A DNA stretch of 28,794 bases from a virus (lineage: Duplodnaviria; Caudoviricetes), in IMG/VR virus record IMGVR_UViG_3300046005_001196, positions 1-28,794 of that record; one strand, written 5' to 3'. The notes beneath the pieces are model-generated. The model did not search any database and was not told where the DNA came from. It was given only the letters and a program-made list of their open reading frames with translations. Below, one piece after another: positions 1 through 19,885 of this stretch. Within the stretch, counting starts at the first letter, position 1. Every line of letters begins with the position of its first letter. Position numbers and translations under genes: made by a program.

Positions 1-935
1 ATGTACCTACGGATCATTTTGTTTCTCACTTGGACATTGTCATACATTCCAGCTTCTTTTAATGCCCTCACGCGATCCGCGCTTAATGTGAAGGTCGCTT
101 TCGTGGAGCTACCACTATTGGCTTCCCTTCCCGATGACTCATTCATACTTCTAGGTCTTTCACGGACAACTCCTTCACTTGAATCATCATCGCCACTGTA
201 ATGTTCAGGCAATGTTTTTTTCAATCGGTTTGTGAACTCTTCCCAATACTTTTCAGTTCTTGGGTTGAATCCCTCTTTCAATAATACTTTGTCAACAGCG
301 ACTGCAATGGCCGAGTCTTGATCACCGACGTTCGGATCGTACCAAGAATTCTCACGCATCCATTTGCCAGCCATTTCAGCAACAACAGGATCCTGTGTTT
401 GCTGTGGTTGTTTGCTTGCTTCAGTCGCCTGACGTTTAAGGTTAGCTAACTTATCAACGTTGACCCGCGCTGAGTGCAACATCCTTTGCGCCCCGATCAT
501 CGCGTCACCGTCACCGGAGCGCGTGGCTTTGTTGATCTCCATTTCAGCGTACTCAAGGCGCACCATCTCATCTTCTAGTGCTTTATCCACCCGCACTTGG
601 TCTGCTGCGTTGGTGCGCTGTTCAACGGCGGATAACCGAGTTAATAGTTGGGCGTTTTCACGCTTCAATTGCTCATATTTGAAATCCTTTTCAGCCCGTT
701 CCTGAACATGCATCTGTTTCCGGGCTTTGCGCTTCTCACGTCTGATGCGCCTGATTTCTTCGGTGTCGCTGGCCTGATCTACGCCACCATCATCGGGCAC
801 GTGGTTTGATTCACCCTCCTCTCCCTCGTGTTGATCATCTCCAGGCTGCTCAATTTTTGAACTATCGACCTCAACCGTGCCATCACTTTTTTCGACAATC
901 GGCAGTTCGTCGTCTTCTCTATGTCCGGCGGCCAT
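1..935 (-). CDS. Probable capsid scaffolding protein (partial, runs off window start)
   Basis: Not in the ORF track because it has no stop in the window. ATG at 935 overlaps the upstream stop (TGATG). Manual translation is open to base 1: MAAGHREDDELPIVEKSDGTVEVDSS...RRIRREKRKARK...WMRENSWYDP...KMIRRY. Acidic N-terminus, coiled-coil character, position downstream of portal and GroES. Confidence 0.65.
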   Translation of the reverse strand, partial: MAAGHREDDELPIVEKSDGTVEVDSSKIEQPGDDQHEGEEGESNHVPDDGGVDQASDTEEIRRIRREKRKARKQMHVQERAEKDFKYEQLKRENAQLLTRLSAVEQRTNAADQVRVDKALEDEMVRLEYAEMEINKATRSGDGDAMIGAQRMLHSARVNVDKLANLKRQATEASKQPQQTQDPVVAEMAGKWMRENSWYDPNVGDQDSAIAVAVDKVLLKEGFNPRTEKYWEEFTNRLKKTLPEHYSGDDDSSEGVVRERPRSMNESSGREANSGSSTKATFTLSADRVRALKEAGMYDNVQVRNKMIRRY

Positions 936-1516
936 CAGTAAATCGCTTTCATGGCGAGGGGGTCGCCTGTCACAGCCGCAATAACTTCATGGTCGTTTAG
1001 CACAACGAACAATGCACGCTCATCTTTGTCACCGTATGGTACTTCCCATCTGTCACCGCCCCACTTGGGCACGCGGATGTAATCGCCTTCCGCGCACCAT
1101 GCGCCTTCTGGCCACGGCTCCATCGTGTCGCGCTTCTTAAATGCCAGCGGTCCGATCGCGATGACTTTACCCACCATGTTGTTGAATTTTTCGGCATCAG
1201 TGGTTTCCTTCACCAACATGATGCCTGATTCTGTGGTCTTCGCTTCTGTCGCTTTCAATTGAACAAGTATCCTCGCGCCCAATGGCCGCGCACCCGGAGG
1301 GATGACCGGGAATGCCCTATTCAACCTTTCTTGGTAATCTAATACTATTTCTGCGGCAACCACGCCGGGTTGACCTTCATATTCGCTATCCTTAAAGATG
1401 AATCTTCTTCCGAATGCTTGGTCAGCATCGTTTATTTTCCTTGCAGTAGGCTGCATCCTACCCGCCGCCATATCAGCCGCTAAATCCCGCTTTTGTTCAT
1501 CCATTAACTGTGCCAT
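935..1516 (-). CDS. GroES/Cpn10-like co-chaperonin with N-terminal extension
   Basis: Cpn10 signatures RPLGARILVQ, KTTESGIML (mobile loop), GKVIAIGP, GDYIRVPKWGG, VLNDHEVIAAV; RBS GAAAGGA upstream. Confidence 0.85.
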   Translation of the reverse strand: MAQLMDEQKRDLAADMAAGRMQPTARKINDADQAFGRRFIFKDSEYEGQPGVVAAEIVLDYQERLNRAFPVIPPGARPLGARILVQLKATEAKTTESGIMLVKETTDAEKFNNMVGKVIAIGPLAFKKRDTMEPWPEGAWCAEGDYIRVPKWGGDRWEVPYGDKDERALFVVLNDHEVIAAVTGDPLAMKAIY

Positions 1517-1743: not shown

Positions 1744-1889
1744 TTGGATGTCTTGTTCACTGGTGCTGGCTTCTTGTCACCACCTGACAGCGATTTACCA
1801 TCCAATGGAACGCCCATTGCCATGCGCTTATGCTGCGAAACAAGTTCGCTCTTCTGTGCTGCATCACTGCTGCTCTTCTCGTTCATCAT
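1740..1889 (-). CDS. Small hypothetical protein (49 aa)
   Basis: Manual translation MMNEKSSSDAAQKSELVSQHKRMAMGVPLDGKSLSGGDKKPAPVNKTSK; fills the gap exactly, with 4-nt start/stop overlaps at both ends. Confidence 0.7.
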   Translation of the reverse strand: MMNEKSSSDAAQKSELVSQHKRMAMGVPLDGKSLSGGDKKPAPVNKTSK

Positions 1890-4378
1890 GCTTCTCCATT
1901 CATAGATTGTTGTATTCTGTCCTGCAATCCCACAACCGTCTTTTCCTGCTCACCCTTCAGCTTTGCGGCCTCAACAGACAACTCAATCGTTGATATCCGC
2001 TCCTTCGTCAGGTTCTGCTCTGTCGCCATCGCTGCGGTCAGCTCATTCTTCTCTGTTGCTTGTTGGTGTGACAGCTCCAGCTTCTTGCCATCCATCGTTA
2101 TATCAGCCATATCCTTTTCCTTGCGCCTCTGTGTCTCAGCGAGTGATGCCTGCAGAATAGGGTCTTGCTGTGGTTGCGGTGCGTACTGCTGCGCTATCTG
2201 TGTGAGTTGCTGCAATGCAGCGGAGAACTGCTGGAAGCCTTGCTCGATGTCGTTGTTTACAGCATGTGCCGCGCCAGCAATGGCGTGGTCTATCTCCCGT
2301 AACCCTTTTTTCTTGTCGTACTTTGGCTTCAACTCGCCTGTTTCATGTGCTGCGTACTCCTCAACCCTTTGCGTGTACCACAACAGCATGTGCTGTTTGG
2401 CGTGCTCTATGGCCGCTGGCACAAACACTGGAGCCATTATCGGGTTAGAGCCTAATGCCGGGTTCATCGCGAAGGAGAACAGCGTCTCCAAGTGTGCCAA
2501 GTGGTCTTGCTCAGGATACGCAACAACTGCCCGCCCAATGGCCATCGCTGCGTTCTCGTCTGCCGCGTGCATTTCGATGTTCTTGTTGAACTGCGGCATG
2601 ATCTCAGCTACGTTCGGCACGCGCATCTGTTTCATGATCCTGCCATGAACGGCTCTTGGGTCGTACAGGCCGGGGGCTTCCTTCATCAGCTGCAAGATCA
2701 TTTGGTTCTGCGCTACCCGCTGACCTTCAGAGAATATGTGCGGGTCGCTGACCGGGATGATGTCGCTGCTGGACGCGAAGTCCGCTTCCGTTACGCCGAA
2801 CTCCTCCACCATGTCCTGCTGCTTTTGATCAATCAAATAATACTTGTTGATTCGTTGCAGGATCTTGAGCACACGCCTTTGTGAGTCGTGGAGCTTCGCG
2901 TGTATCGAGGAGAACACCACGGAGCCTTGCTCAATCAGAGCTTGCGTCGTGCCCACTGGCGCGTTGCTTGTGATGTCGGCGATCTTTTCTTCAGCGGTTG
3001 TCACCACACCTTTAGCCGCGTTGGTGATCCATCCTAACAATTCGAACAGCACAGGCGAAGGTGGATTGAACGGCATTGGCATTGCGATCTTGCGGATGTC
3101 GTCAACACCTACCGCGCCTTCAATCTCAACGATCTGCGTCACCTCGACACTCTTCGATTGCCCGGATACTTTCGCGCCCTTGAGCTTGAGCATCGTTGCA
3201 GTGTTGTTGATGTGGGCAGTGTCCAACAGAGCACGCAAAGCACCTGTTGCGCTTGCGGCCAAGCCGCCGATCAACTGGGGCAGGCCGATGGCATACGCAC
3301 CACGCCATGGAATGAACTTGAATTCAACCATCCAATCCAGCCGCTCTAACGTTTCGTCGCCGTCTTCCCAATTGCGATACAGGCCAACGATTGAATAGTC
3401 TTGGTCATCGATCATGAGCATGTACGGAGCTTCTTCGCCGCCTGTGATCTGGTCGTCCTCCAATGACAGGTTGCAACTCACGTGGTACATGCGCCTCAGG
3501 CGTTCTGTGTCGTCGGTGCCTTGATACTCCTTGCCCTCTATTTTCTGATTAGCCGACTCCGACAACGTGGCATCAGGTGCGAGTGAGGCCGCGCTATAAC
3601 TGCCGTCCAAGTACAGCCCGCGCTTGATCCTGCTCCGATACTCGAAGTCAGATATGTCCTGCATTTCGGTGGTGCGCTGCGCACAATAGAAATTGGTCGC
3701 GGAGAATGGCAACAGGATCCTGTCGATGGGTACGAACTCCGCGCATGGACGGCGCTTCTTAGCGTCCCACCACATCTTTAGAAACTGGCTGCCGCCCAAT
3801 GGTAGCTGGGTTAGCAACTGCTCGATCTCATCGCGGAACTCGACGATCTGCTCCGTCAACTGCCAGTTCATGAAGTCGCGTTTGCGTTCAGCGATCTCTA
3901 TTTTGTCTTCTGTGTTTTCACCTTTGATGTTTATCCGCACGGGACCATCAGGCGGGAATATCTCTTTCATGCCGCGTGCTGCGAAATCAACACACGCTTC
4001 GGCCATAACAGGGTGCGTTACACGTGCCGCGCCGGCAAATGCAGCACCGCCGGGAGCGTCATCGCCCATGCCAGTACGCCTGAGTCCCTCTTCATACTGC
4101 TCATCACGCTGCTTCCGCGCCTCTTTATCTGATTCGATGTTGTAGATGTATTGCAGGGCGAGGCTGGACAGTTCACTCTTGCTCACAACCGCTGCCAAAT
4201 TCTCGTAGAAGTCGCCGCCCGACTGCTGTTCACCGTCCAGCATGACCATGACGGAACCATCAGGCATTTCGACCAAGCCTTGATCCGTCATATCAACAGC
4301 GAAGTCTTCGGGCTGATATTCTTCAGGAGCGTACTGCTCAATGTCTGGGGTGGCTTGTTGTAAGGGGAAGTTATCCAT
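1886..4378 (-). CDS. Portal (head-tail connector) protein
   Basis: 830 aa with podovirus portal-like segments (ARVTHPVMAEA, RKRDFMNWQL, LPLGGSQFLK, GAYAIGLPQLIG, APVGTTQALIEQG) and a Q-rich coiled-coil C-terminus; head-module context. Confidence 0.9.
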   Translation of the reverse strand: MDNFPLQQATPDIEQYAPEEYQPEDFAVDMTDQGLVEMPDGSVMVMLDGEQQSGGDFYENLAAVVSKSELSSLALQYIYNIESDKEARKQRDEQYEEGLRRTGMGDDAPGGAAFAGAARVTHPVMAEACVDFAARGMKEIFPPDGPVRINIKGENTEDKIEIAERKRDFMNWQLTEQIVEFRDEIEQLLTQLPLGGSQFLKMWWDAKKRRPCAEFVPIDRILLPFSATNFYCAQRTTEMQDISDFEYRSRIKRGLYLDGSYSAASLAPDATLSESANQKIEGKEYQGTDDTERLRRMYHVSCNLSLEDDQITGGEEAPYMLMIDDQDYSIVGLYRNWEDGDETLERLDWMVEFKFIPWRGAYAIGLPQLIGGLAASATGALRALLDTAHINNTATMLKLKGAKVSGQSKSVEVTQIVEIEGAVGVDDIRKIAMPMPFNPPSPVLFELLGWITNAAKGVVTTAEEKIADITSNAPVGTTQALIEQGSVVFSSIHAKLHDSQRRVLKILQRINKYYLIDQKQQDMVEEFGVTEADFASSSDIIPVSDPHIFSEGQRVAQNQMILQLMKEAPGLYDPRAVHGRIMKQMRVPNVAEIMPQFNKNIEMHAADENAAMAIGRAVVAYPEQDHLAHLETLFSFAMNPALGSNPIMAPVFVPAAIEHAKQHMLLWYTQRVEEYAAHETGELKPKYDKKKGLREIDHAIAGAAHAVNNDIEQGFQQFSAALQQLTQIAQQYAPQPQQDPILQASLAETQRRKEKDMADITMDGKKLELSHQQATEKNELTAAMATEQNLTKERISTIELSVEAAKLKGEQEKTVVGLQDRIQQSMNGEA

Positions 4379-9643: not shown

Positions 9644-9852
9644 AACTTACAACAACCCTAGCAAGAATCCGCAGACTCAGAGCAAAAATAGCCTACTCAC
9701 GGATCGCCCGCACAATCCTGCGCCCACTCACGGCGGAAGGGTGCCGCACTCACTGGTTGCAAGGCGCGTTAGCTGGTGATGATCATGCATGGCATATTGT
9801 CCGGTATAGCAAACTGCGCGGCCTGGTGCAGTGGATTGCCATTCATAGATAA
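9640..9852 (+). CDS. Hypothetical basic protein (70 aa)
   Basis: ATGA overlap with previous gene; N-terminus MKLTTTLARIR resembles that of the next gene. Confidence 0.6.
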   Translation: MKLTTTLARIRRLRAKIAYSRIARTILRPLTAEGCRTHWLQGALAGDDHAWHIVRYSKLRGLVQWIAIHR

Positions 9853-9865
9853 GAGGAGAATCAAA

Positions 9866-10558
9866 ATGACCCAACTTACAACAACACTAAACAAAATCCG
9901 CAAATGCAGCCCATGCGAGTCGGGGTGGAAAATTCTGCTCAAGCACCTCGACAAAACTGAGGCGGACGATGAACCACTGCTCTTTAGTGTTATCGTTGAG
10001 TCAAACGGTCTCACTTATGCTTTGTGGTGTACACGCGCTGCGCCTGAATATGACAAGGAGTGGAGGTTGTTTGCGGTATGGTGCGCCCGGCAGGTGCAGC
10101 ACATAATGGTAGATGTGAGGAGTATAGCTGCAATAGATGTTGCGGAACGATTCGCGCATGGAAGAGCTACAGATGAAGAGCGAGCAGCTGCGAGGGATGC
10201 TGCGAGTGATGCTGCGTGGGCTGTTGCGAGGGATGCTGCGAGTGTTGCGAGGGCTGCGTGTGCTGCTGCGAGTGTTGCTGCGTGGGATGCTGCGTGGGAT
10301 GCTGCGAGTGATGCTGCGTGTGCTGCGAGTGCTGCGAGTGTTGCTGCGAGTGATGCTGCTGCGTGGGATGCTGCGAGTGATGCGACTGCTGTTGCGACTG
10401 CTGCTGCGAGTGTTGCTGCGTGGGTTGCGAGTGATGCTGCGTGGGCTGCTGCGAGTGCTGCGACTGCTGCTGCGAGTGCTGCGTGGGCTGCTGCGAGTGC
10501 TGCGACTGCTGCTCAAAAAACCGAGTTCTTACGTGTCGTGTCGGGAGCACTAAAATGA
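9866..10558 (+). CDS. Phage protein with Imm5-like core and Ala-rich AAxD/A repeats
   Basis: Start reassigned to ATG 9866 (RBS GAGGAG). TTLNKIRKCSPCESGW, RLFAVWCARQV, AAIDVAERFAHGRATDEE, then AAW/AAR/AAS repeats. Confidence 0.8.
   Translation: MTQLTTTLNKIRKCSPCESGWKILLKHLDKTEADDEPLLFSVIVESNGLTYALWCTRAAPEYDKEWRLFAVWCARQVQHIMVDVRSIAAIDVAERFAHGRATDEERAAARDAASDAAWAVARDAASVARAACAAASVAAWDAAWDAASDAACAASAASVAASDAAAWDAASDATAVATAAASVAAWVASDAAWAAASAATAAASAAWAAASAATAAQKTEFLRVVSGALK
10187..10513 (+). repeat. Coding tandem repeat, ~12 nt unit GCTGCG-(AGG/AGT/TGG/TGT/ACT)-(GAT/GCT/GTT)
   Basis: Directly visible; encodes the Ala-rich tract and explains several overlapping spurious ORFs. Confidence 0.95.
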
Positions 10559-11479: not shown

Positions 11480-11636
11480 AGAGATCTATTCCGTGCAGAT
11501 GTCAGACAAAATGGCAAATCCGTCTGTCGCACGCAGCATGTTGATGAGGCAACTCGCAAATGAGCAATTGACAGATGCCGTCAAATTAACCAACTCGCAA
11601 GTTATTAATACAGGGAGGATTGGCAAATGTCTATGA
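11442..11636 (+). CDS. Hypothetical protein (64 aa)
   Basis: Start reassigned to ATG 11442 behind AGGAGG. Confidence 0.65.
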   Translation: MRTFVFKRNLTVEEIYSVQMSDKMANPSVARSMLMRQLANEQLTDAVKLTNSQVINTGRIGKCL

Positions 11637-12214
11637 ACGTTCTTAATATCTTCTCTATGGCATCATCACTCTCGTCGATGCAGAGGTATTCTCAGACTTT
11701 CCTCAACAAAAAAGAGTCGGTGCTTGAGCACACAGGGTTCGTTGTCTTGTTTTGTTGCCTTGTGGCTCAAGAATTAATAGCAATAGGAAGGAAAGTTGAT
11801 TTAGGATTGCTTTTGAGCAAGGCCGCGTTGCATGATATTGATGAGATAATAACAGGTGATATTCCAAGGCCAACGAAATACTTTGATGAAGAGACCCGGA
11901 AGAACTTTGAAAAAATCGAAGTTTCTGGGATGGTCAATTTGATTAAGAGCATGGACTTGTGTCAATCAACTTTTCTTATTTGGAAGGGAAGTAAGGACGG
12001 TTACGAAGGCACGATTGTCGCAATTGCTGATGTTGCTGCGGTCGCATTTAAGTCTTGGGAAGAGACAGAATTATTGGGCAATAAAATGTTTTCCCACAAT
12101 GCCAATAATTTGGAGAGCCACCTTAATAAGATTTTATTGTCTGTGGATGATGAGTTCTTAAAGGGAATTGTTGTTGATCTTCTTAAATTAACAAGGAAAG
12201 CACAATGGAAATAA
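11627..12214 (+). CDS. HD-domain deoxynucleotide phosphohydrolase (YfbR/DatZ-like)
   Basis: R-Y..., ESVLEH, ALHDIDEIITGDIPRPTK and distal AD motifs typical of YfbR-type HD enzymes. Confidence 0.88.
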   Translation: MSMNVLNIFSMASSLSSMQRYSQTFLNKKESVLEHTGFVVLFCCLVAQELIAIGRKVDLGLLLSKAALHDIDEIITGDIPRPTKYFDEETRKNFEKIEVSGMVNLIKSMDLCQSTFLIWKGSKDGYEGTIVAIADVAAVAFKSWEETELLGNKMFSHNANNLESHLNKILLSVDDEFLKGIVVDLLKLTRKAQWK

Positions 12215-13221
12215 CAGTTCTTAAAATTGATTCTTTAGACATTCTAAATGAGGCTTGGAAAATTTCCAGACCCGGTGAGAGTTCAGAAGAAGTTTCAAAA
12301 ATACTATCAATTGATGCTCCAATTAATGATATTCCGTGCGCTGTTCTGCACATCACCAGCTCAATTGCAGAGAGGGAGGTGTTCGCCTCCTCCAGAGACC
12401 ATGTTATGTGGGCAAAGACATCCAGGGTATCAGACCCAACTGAATGGGGAATTCCGCTTGTTGGCAACCTGAAGGCTCTTCACGAAGAGCAGCTTGCAAT
12501 GAAGGCTTCCGGAGTGTCGCAAGATATCTACAGGATGCACATGCCGCTTGGGGCGATAACAGAATACACGATCAAGATTAGCATTAGAAGTCTGGTGAAA
12601 TTATCGGATTATTTTAAATACCTGAGCATTGATAATTCTGCTCTTGAAAAAGTTTTATCAGACTGGATTATGGAAGCTCCTCGGCCAAATTATAAACTGA
12701 CAAAATTCATGTCAAGAATAAATAGCTCTGGCAATGGTATTGTTGGTGATTTTCTAATTGTGACAATCAAGGCGTCGCTCGCTCTTCGGGCACAAGCTGT
12801 TCGTCACAAGCAATTCATCATCAAGGACGGTCTGGAGGAAATGTTGCTTGGTGGCGCATTCGAAGGGGTGTCGATCAAAACAGAAATTGATATGCAGCTT
12901 TGCGCCTCCATTGATTTTTGGAAGTCAATTCTGGAAAAAAGAAGTTGTTGGATGGCGCAGTACGGCTTTTGGTCGGACGTAATCATTCTTGTGCAGCAAT
13001 ATATTCCGCTCTCTGAGAATATGTTGCCGTGCAAGGAGTATTGCGTATTTGGGAAAGATGCGGAGCTTCGGTACACGGACAAAGATCCTGGCAGTCCGTG
13101 CCCGAAGCACATCATAATCAACAAGCGTGTGATTACAGAGCAACAGCTTGTTGACATCAATAAACAGTATGAGTTGGAGAAACGTCCACAATTTTGGAGG
13201 AAAATAATAAATGAAATTTGA
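12205..13221 (+). CDS. Divergent tandem ThyX-like (flavin-dependent thymidylate synthase fold) protein
   Basis: First half: AWKIS, AKTSR, SGVSQDIYRMHMPLGAITEYTIKISIRSL parallel ThyX AARVS, ELSGR, SGVPREVARIVLPL..T.....NARSL. Second half: AQAVRHK and KRSCWMAQ parallel Q..RHR and LR....AQ. Confidence 0.7.
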   Translation: MEITVLKIDSLDILNEAWKISRPGESSEEVSKILSIDAPINDIPCAVLHITSSIAEREVFASSRDHVMWAKTSRVSDPTEWGIPLVGNLKALHEEQLAMKASGVSQDIYRMHMPLGAITEYTIKISIRSLVKLSDYFKYLSIDNSALEKVLSDWIMEAPRPNYKLTKFMSRINSSGNGIVGDFLIVTIKASLALRAQAVRHKQFIIKDGLEEMLLGGAFEGVSIKTEIDMQLCASIDFWKSILEKRSCWMAQYGFWSDVIILVQQYIPLSENMLPCKEYCVFGKDAELRYTDKDPGSPCPKHIIINKRVITEQQLVDINKQYELEKRPQFWRKIINEI

Positions 13222-13699
13222 TCAAGTTTATGTGTATATTGCTGCACCGTTTTTTAACGCGGAACAGATCAAGATCGTGCAAGACATCGAAGACACGCTC
13301 CGCACAGCAGATGTGAAATTCTTTTCACCAAGAAGTGAAGGGGTGTTAATAGAGATCGCGCCACAGGATCGCGCAGCTCATCTTGAAAGGGTATACCAAA
13401 GTAACGTAGAGCATATGATGGATTGCAATGTGATGCTGGCGGTTGTTGATGGAAGAGACATCGGCACCATGTTCGAGATTGGATTCTTTGCGTCAAAAAA
13501 ACTCACAAACAAAGATAATTTATCAATCACATTTACTGATAAGTCCTTCGGGTTGAATGTGATGATACAGCAAAGCGTCGACGGACACTTGAAAGGTGTT
13601 GGTGATTTAACTATGCTTCTTGAGATGGTAAAATACAATGGCGGTATTGGTGAAGAGCAGCTGTCATTTTTTAAAGACTTCAATCAAAATGTTTATTAG
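13211..13699 (+). CDS. Nucleoside 2-deoxyribosyltransferase / nucleotide N-glycosidase family protein
   Basis: YIAAPFF, FFSPR, DIGTMFEIG (catalytic Glu) and LNVMI motifs of the NDT/DNPH1/MilB family. Confidence 0.9.
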   Translation: MKFDQVYVYIAAPFFNAEQIKIVQDIEDTLRTADVKFFSPRSEGVLIEIAPQDRAAHLERVYQSNVEHMMDCNVMLAVVDGRDIGTMFEIGFFASKKLTNKDNLSITFTDKSFGLNVMIQQSVDGHLKGVGDLTMLLEMVKYNGGIGEEQLSFFKDFNQNVY

Positions 13700-13709
13700 G
13701 GGACTCAAA

Positions 13710-14060
13710 ATGATCAAAAGAGCTATGCAAGAAATTGTTGCTGAATATAATTCACTTACAGGGCAAAACGTAAAGAGATTTGCGACAGCTGAAATCGGAG
13801 AGAAGCGACTCGCGCTTGCGAAGGGGAGCAAGCCTGTTCCTGTCCTAAAAACCAAGCCTATTCCAAAATGGAAAATGGCAGGAATTACGGTTGATGGATG
13901 TCCTTATCGAAGCATAAAGGAGGCTTTTGATAAACTCGGTCTGCCGCTCAACAAGCATGGCAAGTTAAGGTTGAGGCTGAAAGCTTCTGGCAAAGAAATT
14001 TTTGAGCACAACGGGAAGCAATACCACTTTGGGCTAATTGAACAAGGGAAATTATTATGA
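13710..14060 (+). CDS. Basic hypothetical protein, possible DNA-binding (NUMOD1-like HTH)
   Basis: Start reassigned to ATG 13710 (RBS AGGGG). ITVDGCPYRSIKEAFDKLGL; ends QGKLL. Confidence 0.7.
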   Translation: MIKRAMQEIVAEYNSLTGQNVKRFATAEIGEKRLALAKGSKPVPVLKTKPIPKWKMAGITVDGCPYRSIKEAFDKLGLPLNKHGKLRLRLKASGKEIFEHNGKQYHFGLIEQGKLL

Positions 14061-14566
14061 TTCCGGGAGCAGAATTGATTCGCTCACAAGGTGATGTGCG
14101 CACGGCATTGATGCATGTGGCCGCTGAAATTAATGCCAGACTGGCTAATACGAACCCATTGGTGCTGTCCGTGATGGACGGAGCCGTGGTATTTGCAGGG
14201 CAGTTGTTGCCACTTCTAAATTTCCCTCTTGAATTTGGGTGTTTGCACGTTTCGCGCTACGGCAACGACAAGCACGGGGGAGAGGTTCGTTGGAGAACCG
14301 AGTCAAAAAATCCAGCAGGTCGCGTGGTGCTGGTGCTGGACGACATTTTGGACGAAGGGGAAACATTATACGCTATCAAGCAGCGCATGGAAGAGCTTGG
14401 GGTGACAAAGTTTTATAGTGCCGTTTTCGCCGACAAGGACAATGGCAAGACCAAGCCGATACGCGCCGATTTTGTCGGACTTACCTTGCCAGACCGTTTT
14501 GTATTTGGCTACGGGATGGACATTGAGGGTGCGTGGCGCAATTTGCCTACAATTTATGCATTATAG
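14057..14566 (+). CDS. hpt: Hypoxanthine-guanine phosphoribosyltransferase
   Basis: PRPP-binding motif VLVLDDILDEGETL, HVSRY flexible loop, FVFGYGMD...WRNLP.IY. Confidence 0.95.
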   Translation: MIPGAELIRSQGDVRTALMHVAAEINARLANTNPLVLSVMDGAVVFAGQLLPLLNFPLEFGCLHVSRYGNDKHGGEVRWRTESKNPAGRVVLVLDDILDEGETLYAIKQRMEELGVTKFYSAVFADKDNGKTKPIRADFVGLTLPDRFVFGYGMDIEGAWRNLPTIYAL

Positions 14567-14574
14567 AGGACATC

Positions 14575-14880
14575 ATGAAAAAATCAGTGCCTACAATACT
14601 CACAGAGGCTGCAAAGACATACGAAGAGCGCAACAAGATTTATGGAGACACTTATAAAAACTTTGGTGGAGCGATGGCAGCTGCTTTCCCAAACGGGTTG
14701 GTCGTTAAAACTGCGGACGACTGGAATCGAATAGGTTTGCTGGTTCAAATAATGGGCAAGGTCACGCGCTATGCAGCCCAGTTCGAAAATGGCGGACACC
14801 TGGACAGCGCACACGACGCCTGTGTGTACGCGGCGATGCTTGAGGAGTTGACCGTTGAATATTCCTCAGTCGGGAGTTAA
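14575..14880 (+). CDS. All-alpha MazG-like / nucleotide-modification-associated (DUF1599/DUF6378-like) protein
   Basis: Start reassigned to ATG 14575 (RBS GAGGA). ERNKIYG, K.TRY and HLDSAHDACVYAAML pattern. Confidence 0.65.
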   Translation: MKKSVPTILTEAAKTYEERNKIYGDTYKNFGGAMAAAFPNGLVVKTADDWNRIGLLVQIMGKVTRYAAQFENGGHLDSAHDACVYAAMLEELTVEYSSVGS

Positions 14881-15013
14881 TCAACAGAAGGTGAAATTCT
14901 TCCAAGAGATTGCGCACGCATTCCAATTCTTGTCGCTGTACCATTCGTTGTCTGAGGAAGATCAATTGTCCGTTATGCAAATGCTAACAAAATTACAAGG
15001 TAAAAATAAATGA
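14855..15013 (+). CDS. Small hypothetical protein (52 aa)
   Basis: TTG start behind GAGGAG; MNIPQSGVNQQKVKFFQEIAHAFQFLSLYHSLSEEDQLSVMQMLTKLQGKNK; stop overlaps the HNH ATG. Confidence 0.55.
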   Translation: MNIPQSGVNQQKVKFFQEIAHAFQFLSLYHSLSEEDQLSVMQMLTKLQGKNK

Positions 15014-15507
15014 GTTCCCACAGACCTCCTCCCGTCAAAGGGAAAGCGTGGCAGCAATTGTCTTTTGAGGAAAGATTCAGTGCAAGTTTCACAATCAACA
15101 AAGACACTGGTTGCTGGGAATGGGACAAGGTGCACCCGACAAATGGTTATGGAGGAATTGTCTTTGGAGGGAAGCAACTCAGTGCTCACAGAGCATCATG
15201 GATATTTCACAAGGGGTTGGAGAAAGAAACTGATTGTGTCTTACACAGGTGTGATAATCGCCGATGTGTGAATCCTGACCACCTTTATGTCGGTGACAGA
15301 AAACAAAACCGAAAAGATTTCATGGAGCGCCACCCTAGGGCAAAAGAGCTTGTCGACATTGGACAGAAAGCGGCAACGAAAGGATCAAAGAAAAAGTGGG
15401 ACTCGATGACTGTTGAGCAAAGAAAAGATTTCTGTAAAAGAAGAGCAGAAGCTCAAGCCAAGAATGTTCACAACAGAGTCAAGAAATACAAAAGGAGAAC
15501 GACATGA
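15010..15507 (+). CDS. HNH homing endonuclease
   Basis: CWEW, GYG, AHRASW, VLHRCDNRRCVNPDHL..G...N..D; basic C-terminal tail. Confidence 0.9.
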   Translation: MSSHRPPPVKGKAWQQLSFEERFSASFTINKDTGCWEWDKVHPTNGYGGIVFGGKQLSAHRASWIFHKGLEKETDCVLHRCDNRRCVNPDHLYVGDRKQNRKDFMERHPRAKELVDIGQKAATKGSKKKWDSMTVEQRKDFCKRRAEAQAKNVHNRVKKYKRRTT

Positions 15508-16031
15508 CCATTTCCATTATACTGGATTGTGAAACAACGGGCTTGCCGCTCCCGGACTGCGCAGATCTGGACAAACAGCCATGCATCATCGAGCTTGCCG
15601 TTGCCAGAATCGAGGGTGGTAAGATCGTCGCCGAACACTCATGGTTGATGAATCCTGAGCGTCCGTTGGAAGCGATTATTACCAAGATAACAGGGTTGAA
15701 AGACGAAGACCTGGTCGACAAGCCAAAGTTCCGAGAATTGCTAGGCGAAATCGAAGAAGCATTCGGCGGTGCAGATCAACTTATAGCCCACAATGCACCG
15801 TTTGATGTAGGGTTGCTAGGGTTTGAGTTGTCCAGAGCCTGCAGGACTGGTTTCCCATGGCCTAAAACGACGATATGCACCGTACAGGAGTTCTTCCACG
15901 AGAAGGGCAGGAGATTGACACTTGCCCAGCTGTATGAATTGAAGCTCGGACGGCCTTTAGCGCAGACACACAGGGCAATGGATGATGTCAGAGCACTTGC
16001 TGAAATTTGCATTCACGAGAGGATTGTATGA
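15504..16031 (+). CDS. dnaQ: DnaQ-like DEDDh 3'-5' exonuclease (Pol III epsilon-like)
   Basis: Exo I LDCETTG, Exo II AHNAPFD, Exo III HRAMDDV; RBS AGGAG. Confidence 0.93.
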   Translation: MTISIILDCETTGLPLPDCADLDKQPCIIELAVARIEGGKIVAEHSWLMNPERPLEAIITKITGLKDEDLVDKPKFRELLGEIEEAFGGADQLIAHNAPFDVGLLGFELSRACRTGFPWPKTTICTVQEFFHEKGRRLTLAQLYELKLGRPLAQTHRAMDDVRALAEICIHERIV

Positions 16032-18772
16032 TCCAGCTACGCATCAGGACGGAATTCACATTTGGGCAGACTTATGCTCCCATCGACAAGGTGATTGCCC
16101 ACCTCAAGGAAACGGGGTGCACGGCAGCAGGAATTGTTGACCAAGGGAGCACATGGGGGCACGTCAAGTTCTTTAATAAGTGCAAGGAGGCAGGAATCAA
16201 GCCGCTATTGGGGGTTGAACTTGTCGTGACGGACGATTCCGACGAGTCTCCGCGTATGTGGTTTATTGCCAAAAATATGGAAGGGTTGCAGGAACTATAT
16301 CGTTGGTCAAGCAAGACATACCAGCAGCAGCTTCCCGGCAAACGCGGAGCTATCGCTGGTCTGCGCCGAGCAGATGTGATGAATATGTCAGACAACATCA
16401 TCAAGTTCGCAGGGGACATCATCGACGAAGAGTTCTTGAAGGAAGTCGGGGCATTCGCCGACATCAGTCCGGCCAGTCGAGTGCTGGCTATGAAGAAGCG
16501 GTCGATTGGATTGCCAATTGTCGGTGTGTCGGACAACTCGTACATTAAGCCGGAGGACTCAAAGACATTCGACTTCATGGGAGGTGGCAGGAAGCCTTCG
16601 CCGCAACACATATTGCTTGAATTGGAAGGACAGGACGTTGCGCAGCAGATCGTCGACAGCATCACGCTCGACGCGCTGCCAAAAGCACCGATGATACGCG
16701 CAGAAGGAGATGTAGAGGCATTGTGCCGTGAGGGCATAAAGTTCCGCAGGATGGAGGAAATGTGGACAGAAGAATACGAGCAGAGATTGCTATATGAATT
16801 GGGATTGATCAGAAGCAAGGATTATGATGCTTATTTCATCATCGTCGCAGACATGGTGTGCTATGCCAAGCAACGCATGCTGGTCGGTCCATCAAGAGGA
16901 TCAAGTGCCGGATCTTTGGTTTGCTATCTAATGCGCATCACAGAGGTGAATCCAATTCCTCCAAAATTGATGTTTGAGCGATTCATAGACATTAACCGCT
17001 CTGACCTTCCGGACATAGACCTGGACTTCCCCGATAAGAAGCGCCACGTTGTGTTTGAGTATATGGCCGAAAAGTACGGCGTCGAGAATACAGCGCACAT
17101 CGGAACGGTAAGTGTATACAGACCGAAGAGCGCATTGGTGCAAGTTTGCAAGAAGTTGAACATTTCGCCGTCTGCCACGGCAGCTGTAAAGGTCGCGATG
17201 ATTGAACGTGGGTCTGCCGACTCACGCTCGACCAGTTGTCTGGAAGACACGCTCAAGACGACAGATCCAGGGCGTAAGCTGGTCGAAATGTATCCGCAAG
17301 TGGTGATTGCCACCGAGCTGGAGGGGCACGCATCACACACGGGTGTCCATGCGGCAGGCCTGTTGGTGTGTAATGATAATATAACCAACTATTGCACCGT
17401 TGATGATAACGGTATCGCGCACGTCGAGAAAGGCGCGGCAGAAGAGCTTGGATTACTAAAGATTGACGTTCTTGGTCTGCGCACTCTTGGGGTGCTGGAA
17501 GACTCCGGGGTGCCGATTGACTGGTACAATCTGAAGTTCGACGATCCTGCCGCCTATGCCGTGTTCAACAGCGGAAGGTACAGCGGAATATTTCAATTTG
17601 AGGGGAGCGCATTGCGTTCTGTTGGAGGGCAGATAGACTTCACATCAATGGTGCAGATCGATGCTGTGACGGCACTGGCTCGTCCCGGTCCATTTGGTGG
17701 TGGTGTAACAGAGAAGTATATTAACCGCAGCAATGGCGAGAAATATGATCAATTGCACCCGGCTGTTGCGCAATATATGTCGGAGACATATGGTCTTCCG
17801 ATTTACCAAGAGCAGGTGATGGCAATTGTTCGTTACATCGGCAACTTCAATTGGGAGGACGCATCATTCATCCGCAAGTCAATGGCCAAACGGCTTGGAT
17901 CGGAATTTTTCAATACATTTTATGCGAAATTTGAAGAAGGTGCTATCAGCAATGGTCTTACGAAGGCACAAGCGGCAGACATTTGGGAATTGATAAAGGT
18001 GATGGGCACGTGGTGTATGAACAAGGCTCACACCTATAGTTACGCCATCATCAGCTACTGGACGGCTTACTTGAAGGCGCACCACCCGATGGAATTTGCT
18101 GCTGCCAACTTGCGCAATGCTAAGGACGAGGAAAGTGCTGTCGGATTGCTTCGCGAGATGGTTAAAGAAGGGTTGAAATATATTCCATTCGACATAGAAA
18201 GGTCTGAAGAGCATTGGGCGGCGAAAGGTGATGTGTTGTACGGAGGCTTTATGAATCTTCACGGCTTCGGAGAAGCGAAGGCGAAGAAGTTTTTGGAGGC
18301 ACGCAATGCAGGAAAGTTGACGCAGAAGATGCGCGAAGATGTGGCAAGTGCGCAAAATATATTCTCAGACTTGTTTCCGTTCAGGACGAAGTACGGCCAA
18401 ATGTATGATGATCCGAGCGGCAACGGGTTGGGGGGAGAATTGAGTCACATCGAAGACTTTGATGGTTCGCAATTTGGAAGCCACTTGTTGCTCGGAGAGA
18501 TCATCTACAAGAACTTGCGGGACATCAATGAGGATGTAAACGTCAAGAAGCGCGGAGGGAAGGTCGAAAAAGGACAGCCAACATTCATCGATCTAAGGTT
18601 GCGCGACGACACTGGCGAAATGTTAGCCCGTATCCATCGTTTCGATTACAAACGGATAGGCGAAGAGCTATTCAACACGATTCCGGAAGGAGCACACCTG
18701 TTGGTGCGTCTCAAGATTTGTCGCGGCATCAAGTTTGGCATCATCGAAAAATGGAAAAGAATTGATGTGTAA
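16028..18772 (+). CDS. dnaE: DNA polymerase III alpha subunit (family C)
   Basis: Start reassigned to ATG 16028 (overlaps dnaQ stop). PHP-like N-terminus (GIKPLLGVE), RGSSAGSLVCY, FERF, PDIDLDF, GVHAAG, LLKIDVLGL, YQEQVM, NKAH, YLKAHHP, HhH and OB-like end. Confidence 0.97.
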   Translation: MIQLRIRTEFTFGQTYAPIDKVIAHLKETGCTAAGIVDQGSTWGHVKFFNKCKEAGIKPLLGVELVVTDDSDESPRMWFIAKNMEGLQELYRWSSKTYQQQLPGKRGAIAGLRRADVMNMSDNIIKFAGDIIDEEFLKEVGAFADISPASRVLAMKKRSIGLPIVGVSDNSYIKPEDSKTFDFMGGGRKPSPQHILLELEGQDVAQQIVDSITLDALPKAPMIRAEGDVEALCREGIKFRRMEEMWTEEYEQRLLYELGLIRSKDYDAYFIIVADMVCYAKQRMLVGPSRGSSAGSLVCYLMRITEVNPIPPKLMFERFIDINRSDLPDIDLDFPDKKRHVVFEYMAEKYGVENTAHIGTVSVYRPKSALVQVCKKLNISPSATAAVKVAMIERGSADSRSTSCLEDTLKTTDPGRKLVEMYPQVVIATELEGHASHTGVHAAGLLVCNDNITNYCTVDDNGIAHVEKGAAEELGLLKIDVLGLRTLGVLEDSGVPIDWYNLKFDDPAAYAVFNSGRYSGIFQFEGSALRSVGGQIDFTSMVQIDAVTALARPGPFGGGVTEKYINRSNGEKYDQLHPAVAQYMSETYGLPIYQEQVMAIVRYIGNFNWEDASFIRKSMAKRLGSEFFNTFYAKFEEGAISNGLTKAQAADIWELIKVMGTWCMNKAHTYSYAIISYWTAYLKAHHPMEFAAANLRNAKDEESAVGLLREMVKEGLKYIPFDIERSEEHWAAKGDVLYGGFMNLHGFGEAKAKKFLEARNAGKLTQKMREDVASAQNIFSDLFPFRTKYGQMYDDPSGNGLGGELSHIEDFDGSQFGSHLLLGEIIYKNLRDINEDVNVKKRGGKVEKGQPTFIDLRLRDDTGEMLARIHRFDYKRIGEELFNTIPEGAHLLVRLKICRGIKFGIIEKWKRIDV

Positions 18773-19100: not shown

Positions 19101-19190
19101 ATGAACTCCTACCAATTTAAAACCGAACCGTTCGCCCATCAGCTGACGGCGCTTGCGCTTTGCAAGGACGCGGAGGGCGTAACAGCATGA
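19101..19190 (+). pseudogene. Orphaned 5' fragment of an SNF2-type helicase gene (29 aa)
   Basis: MNSYQFKTEPFAHQLTALALCKDAEGVTA* aligns without gaps to the helicase start MLNYQYKTTPFAHQDSILKESWEDEYV (10 of the first 14 residues identical). Confidence 0.8.
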
Positions 19191-19885
19191 ACTACTCATT
19201 GCACTACGAGCGGTTAATTCAGCGGGCACGAGACCGCGCAAAGCCGGGCGAGTACACCGAACGGCATCACGCACTACCGCGCTGTTTAGGCGGCTCCAAT
19301 GATCGGCACAACTTGGTGCATCTTACGGCTGAAGAACATTATGTCGCGCACCAATTGCTTGTGAAAATGTACCCCGGAAACGGTAAGCTAGTATTTGCAG
19401 TCAACGCTATGCTACGTAGTTCGCGAAGGCATAAAGATCGCGCAGCGAATAAAAGCTACGGATGGATACGCCGAGCATTCGCGATACAATCATCCCTACA
19501 AAATTCGGGAGATAATCACCCAATGAAACGTCCAGAGGTTGCAGCAAAATTAAAAGGCGCGAACAACCCGATGTATGGAGTTAAAGGAAAAGCGCACCCA
19601 AACTTTGGCAAACCCGTAAAGCTTGATCAACGCGGGGCGAAAAATCATATGTTCGGTCGCGCTGGCGAGATGCATCATATGTTCGGGAAGCGCAACGATG
19701 CTATGCAGCGCCCGGAAGTTATCGAAAAGATGCGCGCCACATCACTCAATAAAACCGCTGAAGAAAAAGCAGCTATCCGTGAAAAGAAACGCGCGACATT
19801 TCGAAATCGCACGACTGAGCAACGTGAGCAATTCCATTCTAGGTATGCTGCAACGCGCACGAAAAATAAGGCGGCATCATGCTAA
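19187..19885 (+). CDS. HNH homing endonuclease with NUMOD3-like repeats
   Basis: Start reassigned to ATG 19187 (RBS GGAGG). ERHHALPRCLGGSNDRHNLVHLTAEEHYVAH nuclease motif; repeats GDNHPM, GANNPMYG, GKAHPNFG, GAKNHMFG, GEMHHMFG. Confidence 0.9.
   Translation: MNYSLHYERLIQRARDRAKPGEYTERHHALPRCLGGSNDRHNLVHLTAEEHYVAHQLLVKMYPGNGKLVFAVNAMLRSSRRHKDRAANKSYGWIRRAFAIQSSLQNSGDNHPMKRPEVAAKLKGANNPMYGVKGKAHPNFGKPVKLDQRGAKNHMFGRAGEMHHMFGKRNDAMQRPEVIEKMRATSLNKTAEEKAAIREKKRATFRNRTTEQREQFHSRYAATRTKNKAASC

Follow-up and report, generated by a model that had tools for sequence, protein, structure and literature searches.

Phages with modified thymine and the closest described systems

In the DNA of phage SP-15, part of T is replaced by 5-(4',5'-dihydroxypentyl)uracil, and the making of this chain has been an open question since the 1970s, with papers from 2018–2026, in their available parts, still assuming a hydroxymethyl start. 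According to PMC13697223, long-linker T modification is confirmed, within their group, for three phages only: Bacillus phage SP-15, Yersinia phage YerA41 and Cobetia phage Carin-5. The published nucleoside masses, as given in the accessible portions of the sources, are 346 Da (T+104) for YerA41, 330 Da (T+88) for SP-15 and Carin-5, and 362 Da for the Pbunavirus F8 (390 Da for 14-1). The 222 kb genome of SP-15, a myovirus, encodes PolA along with a reductase, a second ThyX and sugar transferases; its relevant gene set comprises gp127 (an NDT-family protein), gp129 (FabG-like) and gp130 (Thy1-like). The linkers of YerA41 and Carin-5 (104 and 88 Da) are decorated with phosphate and oligosaccharides; they depend on a UDG-fused PolA and prevent sequencing of the DNA, and the genes concerned are dispersed.

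The locus described here lies in a window of 28,794 nucleotides from a Caudoviricetes virus (IMG/VR record IMGVR_UViG_3300046005_001196). While the original prediction held that it matches no recognized pathway, we find that it resembles SP-15 gp127–gp130 and its counterparts in YerA41 and Carin-5, although the pathway there is itself unsolved. Like SP-15, it encodes a divergent ThyX-fold protein (hereafter TX), an NDT-family glycosidase (NDT; within 1 kb of the TX homolog in SP-15) and a YfbR-like HD hydrolase (HD; elsewhere in the SP-15 genome), and YerA41 (gp081, gp086) and Carin-5 (gene 49) likewise combine TX homologs with NDT and HD genes. In contrast to these phages, with their UDG-fused PolA and glycosyltransferase cluster, the phage type considered here (51.5 kb in a circular relative) has a DnaE, and none of the PolA, reductase, sugar transferases or second ThyX of SP-15. 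The window offers a minimal set of three genes, with no sugar transferase among them, for which an exact product mass is predicted.

A conserved three-gene core

Table 1. Genes of the run and the evidence for their assignment.
Feature	Position	Strand	Evidence
YfbR-like HD hydrolase, predicted 5'-deoxynucleotidase (core)	11627..12214	+	Pfam YfbR-like PF12917, E 6e-24
TX, divergent, probably two-domain ThyX-fold protein (core, proposed synthase)	12205..13221	+	tblastn, Foldseek, residue conservation
NDT-family N-glycosidase (core, proposed deoxyribose donor)	13211..13699	+	PF05014, E 1e-12; PDB matches 7o62, 6evs
Small basic protein (not core)	13710..14060	+	phrog_4730
Host-type HPRT, accessory	14057..14566	+	NCBIfam PRK09162 (NF006605), 218 bits, above cut-off 181
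DUF6378-like helical protein	14575..14880	+	PF19905, 25.2 bits, below cut-off 27.1; phrog_4889
HNH homing endonuclease	15010..15507	+	Family matches
DnaQ proofreading exonuclease	15504..16031	+	Clear family match
DnaE-type replicative polymerase	16028..18772	+	Clear family match

All of the reading frames first reported were confirmed in position and strand, and the HD, NDT, HPRT, DnaQ and DnaE identities are upheld by family matches. The genes overlap at five of the eight junctions, in line with the mostly overlapping start and stop codons noted originally, and HD, TX and NDT are indeed AT-rich (39–43% GC vs 50% for the whole window; the earlier hand counts of 21/60, 16/60 and 36/60 were exact). 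The genes listed for the run are present, but the HNH gene between the "MazG-like" gene and DnaQ had been omitted. Two labels gained no support: the "MazG-like" protein scores as DUF6378-like, albeit under the cut-off, with no MazG family match and none among the Atlas structure matches listed, and the supposed portal gene at 1886–4378 has no family match.

The conserved core is three genes, HD, TX and NDT, and the HPRT, basic protein and DUF6378-like genes, once counted as cassette parts, are not conserved with it. The HPRT, ~70% identical to Gallionellaceae enzymes, was considered as a core member and rejected, being found only in five near-identical loci, absent from the 75%-identical locus L006, and present in 0/79 metagenome loci and 1/26 TX clusters; it is lineage-specific. 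The small basic protein also occurs in Ralstonia phage PY059YO380, which is without the cassette and whose DnaE is 62.6% identical to that of the window (~40% for Pbunavirus-type enzymes). The DUF6378-like gene is the usual neighbor of DnaQ–DnaE in this phage group and is also found in L010, while the HNH gene is absent from the near-identical locus L004.

TX homologs are rare among cultured phages, with tblastn retrieving only 10 of 50,697 records, corresponding to nine phages; these include SP-15 gp130 (E 3e-11), YerA41 gp081 (E 5e-32) and Carin-5 gene 49 (E 3e-9), at only 22–28% identity (tblastn). All nine encode an NDT, and the window NDT matches only 21 cultured-phage records, among them eight of the ten TX records; SP-15 gp127 matches it at E 8e-15, and YerA41 gp086, annotated as a mannosyltransferase, is nevertheless a PF05014 protein. 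Among five further phages with SP-15-like polymerases, LIS04 carries both TX and NDT, and RP13, TM30, IME392 and phiLo have neither an NDT nor a TX-type gene. YfbR-like HD genes do occur without TX in RP13, TM30 and IME392, and no HD gene was found in Va2.

The same linkage is seen at uncultured viral TX loci (NDT in 64/64, HD in 63/64), at metagenome loci (70/79 and 66/79, all nine NDT misses lying at contig ends) and by TX cluster (26/26 and 24/26). Where 1.5 kb of flanking sequence was available at a viral or metagenome locus, both genes stand beside TX in every case (47/47 and 37/37). A scan of cellular genome contigs with one pattern, of limited sensitivity, found no TX. Taken together, the strict gene linkage and the relatedness to three phages whose T modifications have been measured support the original suggestion that the genes serve a modified pyrimidine and not simply the supply of dTMP. 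TX fusions were also considered as Rosetta stones and discarded, since the two long proteins concerned (P0082 and P0098) are without HD or NDT.

The ThyX-fold protein and its partner enzymes

The TX reading frame itself has no match in Pfam, PHROG or NCBIfam; however, 13 of 24 family members match Thy1, and its AlphaFold model (pLDDT 92) resembles ThyX structures, bearing out the ThyX-like identity first proposed. The Foldseek matches listed from the PDB are all ThyX (best E 2e-6), the top match overall is SP-15 gp130 (TM 0.73, E 6e-18), and outside the family a tandem protein of Microcystis LMM01 scores best (TM 0.53 across 442 columns). The tandem ThyX arrangement originally proposed stands for the N-terminal half (hhalign 95%, E 3.5e-8), but the C-terminal half resembles ThyX in its motifs and not at profile level (E 0.015), and a profile comparison of the two halves scored like shuffled controls, detecting no internal duplication.

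Equivalents of ThyX S30, R74, S/T88, R90, R147 and R165 are kept in the N-terminal half, and those of Q75, R78, H79 and R174 in the C-terminal half, where the R78/H79/R174 assignments are motif-level only because this half is not ThyX-like by profile. The dUMP- and FAD-contacting arginines are retained, as is the fold of Thermotoga maritima ThyX, an enzyme type that can use a free aldehyde. In contrast to that enzyme, TX has a C-terminal cysteine motif, always occurs with an NDT, and lacks the contiguous RHRxxSxxxxSxR motif, which is split between the halves (RH(R) at 200–202, TSR at 72–74). The folate-site histidine is gone: Ile36 replaces the folate-stacking H53, and Val75 replaces Y91, both residues with known folate-site roles (PMC11940539). 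Position 36 is I, L, V or M (the top four residues) in 150/164 TX sequences, and position 75 is Val in 143/164. Residues W18, S21, R22, R57, W69, R74, R128, R200, R246, W256, D285 and R289 are common to TX and the SP-15, YerA41 and Carin-5 proteins, which in a quick tree fall on separate branches (window TX, YerA41, SP-15/Carin-5), the long branches meeting. The four-cysteine motif, considered as a catalytic Fe–S site, was rejected in this role, as it is missing from the YerA41 homolog and is therefore not needed for the shared chemistry.

HD matches YfbR in the PDB (E 9e-8), and its residues R20, H35, H69, D70, E73, D78 and D135 are present in 32/32 non-redundant cassette members. The NDT has D83 in 26/26 and N116 in 25/26 non-redundant members, which we take to be the 5'-hydroxyl site from alignment to 6evs and 7o62 and the customary NDT numbering. 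DNPH1/MilB-type monophosphate hydrolases instead have an uncharged 5'-phosphate pocket. The Asp/Asn pair, a signature of nucleoside enzymes, would be the reason for HD being there. The NDT triad Y9, N65 and E89 is present in 26/26 non-redundant members, corresponding to the Tyr, Asp-or-Asn and Glu catalytic triad of the superfamily (PMC12884076). Two uncontrolled runs of TX–NDT complex prediction each scored 0.00.

A candidate deoxyribose route and its alternatives

Judging from sequence comparisons, TX very probably makes some thymidine modification. The specific route we favor, and consider somewhat probable, is that HD and NDT together release 2-deoxyribose, with which TX reductively alkylates C5 of dUMP, and that DnaE incorporates the resulting 5-(3,4,5-trihydroxypentyl)-dU. 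In this route, HD would dephosphorylate a deoxynucleotide at its 5' position; the substrate is probably dTMP, in which case dTTP would fall as well, although a purine is possible. NDT would cleave the nucleoside through Glu89 to give free 2-deoxyribose, with deoxyribose-5-phosphate as a fallback. ThyX accepts free formaldehyde via an N5 carbinolamine (PMC8316439), and the reduced FAD of TX may trap the sugar aldehyde at N5 in the same way; attack by dUMP C5 and reduction of the adduct would then yield a C5 deoxyribityl chain. The modified thymidine would be made before replication, with host kinases providing the triphosphate and the phage DnaE inserting the modified base in place of part of T, likely as protection against host nucleases. 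Neither a dCMP deaminase nor a nucleotide kinase was recognized, so that the host would have to provide dUMP and carry out the phosphorylation. The circular relative genome of 51.5 kb has no recognizable glycosyltransferase or reductase, and the predicted base is therefore a bare one of 346 Da; the original observation that no glycosyltransferase is visible also stands, as none was recognized in the window or in genome G001 among the ORFs inspected or scanned. NDT is more likely a side-chain supplier than the third depletion enzyme it was first thought to be. Literature searches, covering passages of main text, found no account of a deoxyribose route to the chain.

Simple arithmetic on dU minus H gives 346 with a deoxyribityl, 330 with a dideoxy and 362 with a ribityl chain, an agreement with the published masses that does not fix the structure. 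A 1978 study, by its title, reportedly found that ribose label enters the SP-15 chain. The principal alternative, which we consider unlikely, is that TX makes modified T otherwise, as a hydroxymethyl-dUMP synthase or with another aldehyde donor, HD and NDT only depleting or salvaging canonical nucleotides. SP-15 gp130 has been proposed to be a hydroxymethyluridylate synthase (PMC5977210), a 5hmdU start is assumed in the available parts of PMC12686479 and PMC13697223, HD lies ~0.5 kb from a divergent ThyA in IME392, and in Z phages dAMP is a substrate of DmtZ, a hydrolase that is itself a phage NDT. However, a hydroxymethyl route leaves unexplained the presence of NDT in every TX cluster and cultured TX phage and in neither of the ThyA-type phages RP13 and IME392, as well as the loss of the folate-site histidine and the three pentose-series masses; also against it, the chain of SP-15 is attached through carbon, and its formation is reported to precede DNA synthesis.

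It is considerably less probable that TX, however unusual, works as an ordinary thymidylate synthase in a cassette boosting dTMP supply and salvage, with canonical DNA. In the closest cultured relative, and likewise in a Pbunavirus, a single-domain ThyX occupies the TX slot, which would also fit the mere exchange of one dTMP source for another; the complete small genomes tested have no synthase-like gene besides TX, and the DNA of TX phages sequences readily in metagenomes. Against this, a neighboring dNMP phosphatase would counter dTMP supply, H53 and Y91 are lost, and a second, canonical synthase is kept by SP-15, Carin-5 and LIS04 (none besides TX was found in YerA41). Moreover, Pbunaviruses, with their single-domain ThyX, themselves carry modified T. 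They share the slot before DUF6378–DnaQ–DnaE, and the Ab27 ThyX, the one read, shows the H53-to-Ile and Y91-to-Val/Ala changes of TX; however, no YfbR-like HD was found, and TX is no closer to Pbunavirus-type than to canonical ThyX. Another substitution (uracil-DNA or a purine exchange of the 2-aminoadenine type, in which HD, NDT and HPRT would serve as DatZ, DmtZ and a salvage enzyme, respectively) is most improbable: HD and NDT-family enzymes do stand beside a synthase and polymerase as in the Z-DNA system (PurZ, DatZ, MazZ, DmtZ, DpoZ), with dATP triphosphohydrolase as the best PHROG label of HD (E 1e-21), a Tyr/Asn/Glu triad common to NDT and DmtZ, and an adjacent HPRT, but PurZ/PurA was found, as first noted for PurZ, in 0/5 genomes tested (control 14/14), the polymerase is a DnaE, HPRT is confined to a single cluster, DmtZ is without the Asp/Asn 5'-hydroxyl residues, and every characterized TX phage is T-modified.

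Returning to the deoxyribose route, we tentatively extend it, at slightly less than even confidence, to a ThyX-derived, folate-free enzyme class that would join whole sugars to uracil by a C–C bond, using deoxyribose (from HD and NDT) here and in SP-15, YerA41 and Carin-5, and ribose in Pbunaviruses. If true, the ThyX fold would gain a new flavin chemistry, the 330, 346 and 362 Da bases would all follow from a single chemistry, and a DNA modification unsolved for 50 years would be explained. Small DnaE phages would bear the bare, undescribed base 5-(3,4,5-trihydroxypentyl)uracil, a modified base would be predicted across a widespread group of sequenced phages (E up to 1e-30; 198 clusters at 50% identity), and the unexplained modified T of therapeutic Pbunaviruses would have a candidate enzyme. 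Relatives with a pair of SDR and glyoxalase-fold genes may remove one more hydroxyl, giving the SP-15-type T+88. Neither SP-15 nor Carin-5 yielded a glyoxalase-type partner, and the idea that the SDR decides between T+88 and T+104 was only partly borne out, as YerA41 (T+104) has three SDR-type genes, which lie >50 kb from TX.

Identity and gene linkage of the ThyX-fold protein

The cassette is a real feature. The nine ORFs that the original prediction had described between positions 11627 and 18772 are all present, its hand GC counts were exact on recount, and an HNH gene that it had overlooked lies in the same stretch. The HD hydrolase (HD), the divergent ThyX-fold protein (TX) and the NDT-family N-glycosidase (NDT) form an AT-richer block (39–43% GC vs 50% for the window). 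TX itself matches no family, and 13 of 24 relatives match Pfam Thy1; its predicted model (pLDDT 92.4) matches ThyX in the PDB, with SP-15 gp130 as the best viral structural match (TM 0.73). The family comprises 198 clusters (E ≤ 1e-30), its Atlas clusters are 95–100% viral, and only 10 of 50,697 cultured-phage records match it, corresponding to nine phages: phiXF1, GN1, YerA41, Va2, 150E35-1, GXN1, SP-15 (two records), Carin-5 and 1.031.O. Long-linker thymidines have been measured in three of these, SP-15, YerA41 and Carin-5 (PMC5977210, PMC9023294, PMC12686479, PMC13697223).

When only the window proteins served as queries, NDT was found in 64/64 viral TX loci and HD in 63/64; with profiles built from those loci, metagenome TX loci yielded NDT in 70/79 and HD in 66/79, and both in all 37 that extend 1.5 kb either side of TX. 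Since the collections overlap and one cluster contains 90 loci, the fair count is by cluster: the 134 of 143 loci with a sufficiently long TX fall into 26 clusters at 60% identity, in which NDT occurs in 26, HD in 24, DnaE in 21, an SDR in 15, a glyoxalase-fold gene and DUF6378 in 13 each, and HPRT in one. The gene order is not fixed (HD-TX-NDT, TX-NDT-HD, TX-HD-NDT and NDT-HD-TX). NDT is present in all nine cultured TX phages, which span PolA and DnaE lineages, and among five further phages with SP-15-like polymerases (EP_H11 left out) LIS04 has both TX and NDT and the other four have neither. Of nine TX genomes from cultured phages examined for HD (a set with LIS04 but not GN1), eight had it, Va2 being the one in which it was not found; HD also occurs in three genomes without TX, and is thus less specific than NDT. 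We note that an HPRT (P0171) and a TX (P0005), each 75% identical to its window counterpart, both have 5328 bases as the length of their longest contig, and may represent a second lineage member with HPRT.

Active sites and a proposed route from deoxyribose

Across 164 sequences, the N-half of TX keeps S21, R57, T72, R74, R110 and R128 (T. maritima S30, R74, S88, R90, R147 and R165), and the C-half keeps Q197, R200, H201 and R246 (Q75, R78, H79 and R174), the C-half mapping relying on motifs and predicted secondary structure because its ThyX profile score is not significant. T. maritima numbers were taken from alignments and, with a 12-residue tag offset, agree with those in PMC8316439 and PMC11940539; R174 is the residue that activates dUMP. 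Ile36 and Val75 replace the folate-stacking H53 and Y91. From these residues we infer two half-degenerate domains that jointly build the active site. A four-cysteine motif (C248, C276, C280, C299), likely a metal site, occurs in 156–157 of 164 TX proteins and is missing from YerA41.

HD retains its catalytic and metal residues. NDTs are able to release sugar to water. The window enzyme shares the triad Tyr9/Asn65/Glu89 with DmtZ, while also retaining Asp83 and Asn116, a pair tied to 5'-hydroxyl binding in nucleoside transferases (PMC12884076). YerA41 gp086 is annotated as a mannosyltransferase, yet its PF05014 match (E 8e-14) identifies it as an NDT.

ThyX accepts free formaldehyde via a flavin N5 carbinolamine (PMC8316439); a longer aldehyde in its place would give a C5 alkyl chain, and NDT, present with TX in every cluster, would free the deoxyribose that such a route requires. 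By arithmetic, dU (228) minus H plus reduced 2-deoxyribose gives 346, the YerA41 core mass; reduced 2,3-dideoxyribose gives 330, the mass in SP-15 and Carin-5; and reduced ribose gives 362, that of the Pbunavirus F8 nucleoside (362 Da; bioRxiv 10.1101/2025.03.31.646159). The 390-Da base of phage 14-1 fits no reduced chain (a hexitol would be 392). Ribose label enters the SP-15 chain, according to the title of a 1978 paper cited in PMC5977210.

That TX makes a modified thymidine is a prediction we hold with considerable confidence; that it does so from deoxyribose is one we favor by a smaller degree. Several points count against this proposal: TX is only 22–28% identical to proteins of the characterized phages, Pbunavirus ThyX is no nearer to it than canonical ThyX is, the SDR distribution is imperfect, and genes for dUMP supply or kinases are not recognizable. 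The modification type is already known, and the published accounts consulted propose a hydroxymethyl route without assigning enzymes; ThyA-type routes are the subject of PMC13326640 and PMC8989533. We did not find the deoxyribose route in the open-access main text searched.

The window phage and its relatives

The window differs at 4 positions over 21,014 bases from G001, a viral contig of 51.8 kb. The termini of G001 overlap by ~245 bases, so that it is probably a complete genome. Its remainder encodes packaging, lysis and structural genes; PurZ, ThyA, canonical ThyX, dCMP deaminase and SDR were not found in it, and no glycosyltransferase was recognized among ORFs read or scanned (short ones in part). 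With neither SDR nor sugar transferase seen, the window phage would carry a bare 346-Da base, which should be small enough for sequencing. The window HPRT shares ~70% identity with enzymes of Gallionellaceae, which hints at the host.

A further point against the proposal comes from Ralstonia phage PY059YO380, the nearest relative in culture: its TX slot holds a single-domain ThyX that shares ~41% identity with Pbunavirus enzymes. This may reflect an exchange of dTMP sources or one of modification modules. In PY059YO380 and Pbunavirus Ab27, this Pbunavirus-type ThyX has Ile at H53 and Val/Ala at Y91. An enzyme of this type is a candidate source of the 362-Da modified T in phage F8, with ribose as the starting material.

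Where an SDR adjoins the cassette it is mostly paired with the glyoxalase-fold gene, a possible deoxygenation module. Genes beside the cassette at seven loci encode a HAD phosphatase with a cytidylyltransferase, an aminotransferase, a sulfotransferase, TylF and other methyltransferases, and a 2OG-Fe(II) oxygenase; this variability suggests that decorated linker bases exist as a family. In 24 related loci, the gene after the cassette resembles that for a pyrimidine-dimer glycosylase.

Positions of features in the window and in compared loci (L numbers)
Feature	Position	Strand	Remark
GroES/Cpn10-domain protein	window 935-1516	-	head module
260-aa protein, long Ala-rich repeat	window 9776-10558	+	phrog_18326; repeated DNA at ~10100-10500 underlies the repeat
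HD	window 11627-12214	+	
TX	window 12205-13221	+	contains four-cysteine motif
NDT	window 13211-13699	+	
Homing endonuclease	window 15010-15507		one side of DnaQ-DnaE; missing from near-identical locus L004
Homing endonuclease	window 19160-19885		other side of DnaQ-DnaE
YerA41 gp086	L008:18392-18928		
Pbunavirus-type single-domain ThyX	L085:6230-7147		Pbunavirus Ab27
Pbunavirus-type single-domain ThyX	L010:7205-7930		PY059YO380
303-aa protein, GxGxxG start	L010:5170-6081		PY059YO380; directly upstream of ThyX
SDR, mostly with glyoxalase-fold gene	L047, L050, L057/L058, L065, L068-L071, L073		
Variable tailoring genes	L059:11119-12473, L069:12583-13491, L072:10780-11538, L068:7566-8306, L054:6116-6634, L053:14464-15162, L048:13350-13931		
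Pyrimidine-dimer glycosylase-like gene	L020:10782-11264		and relatives
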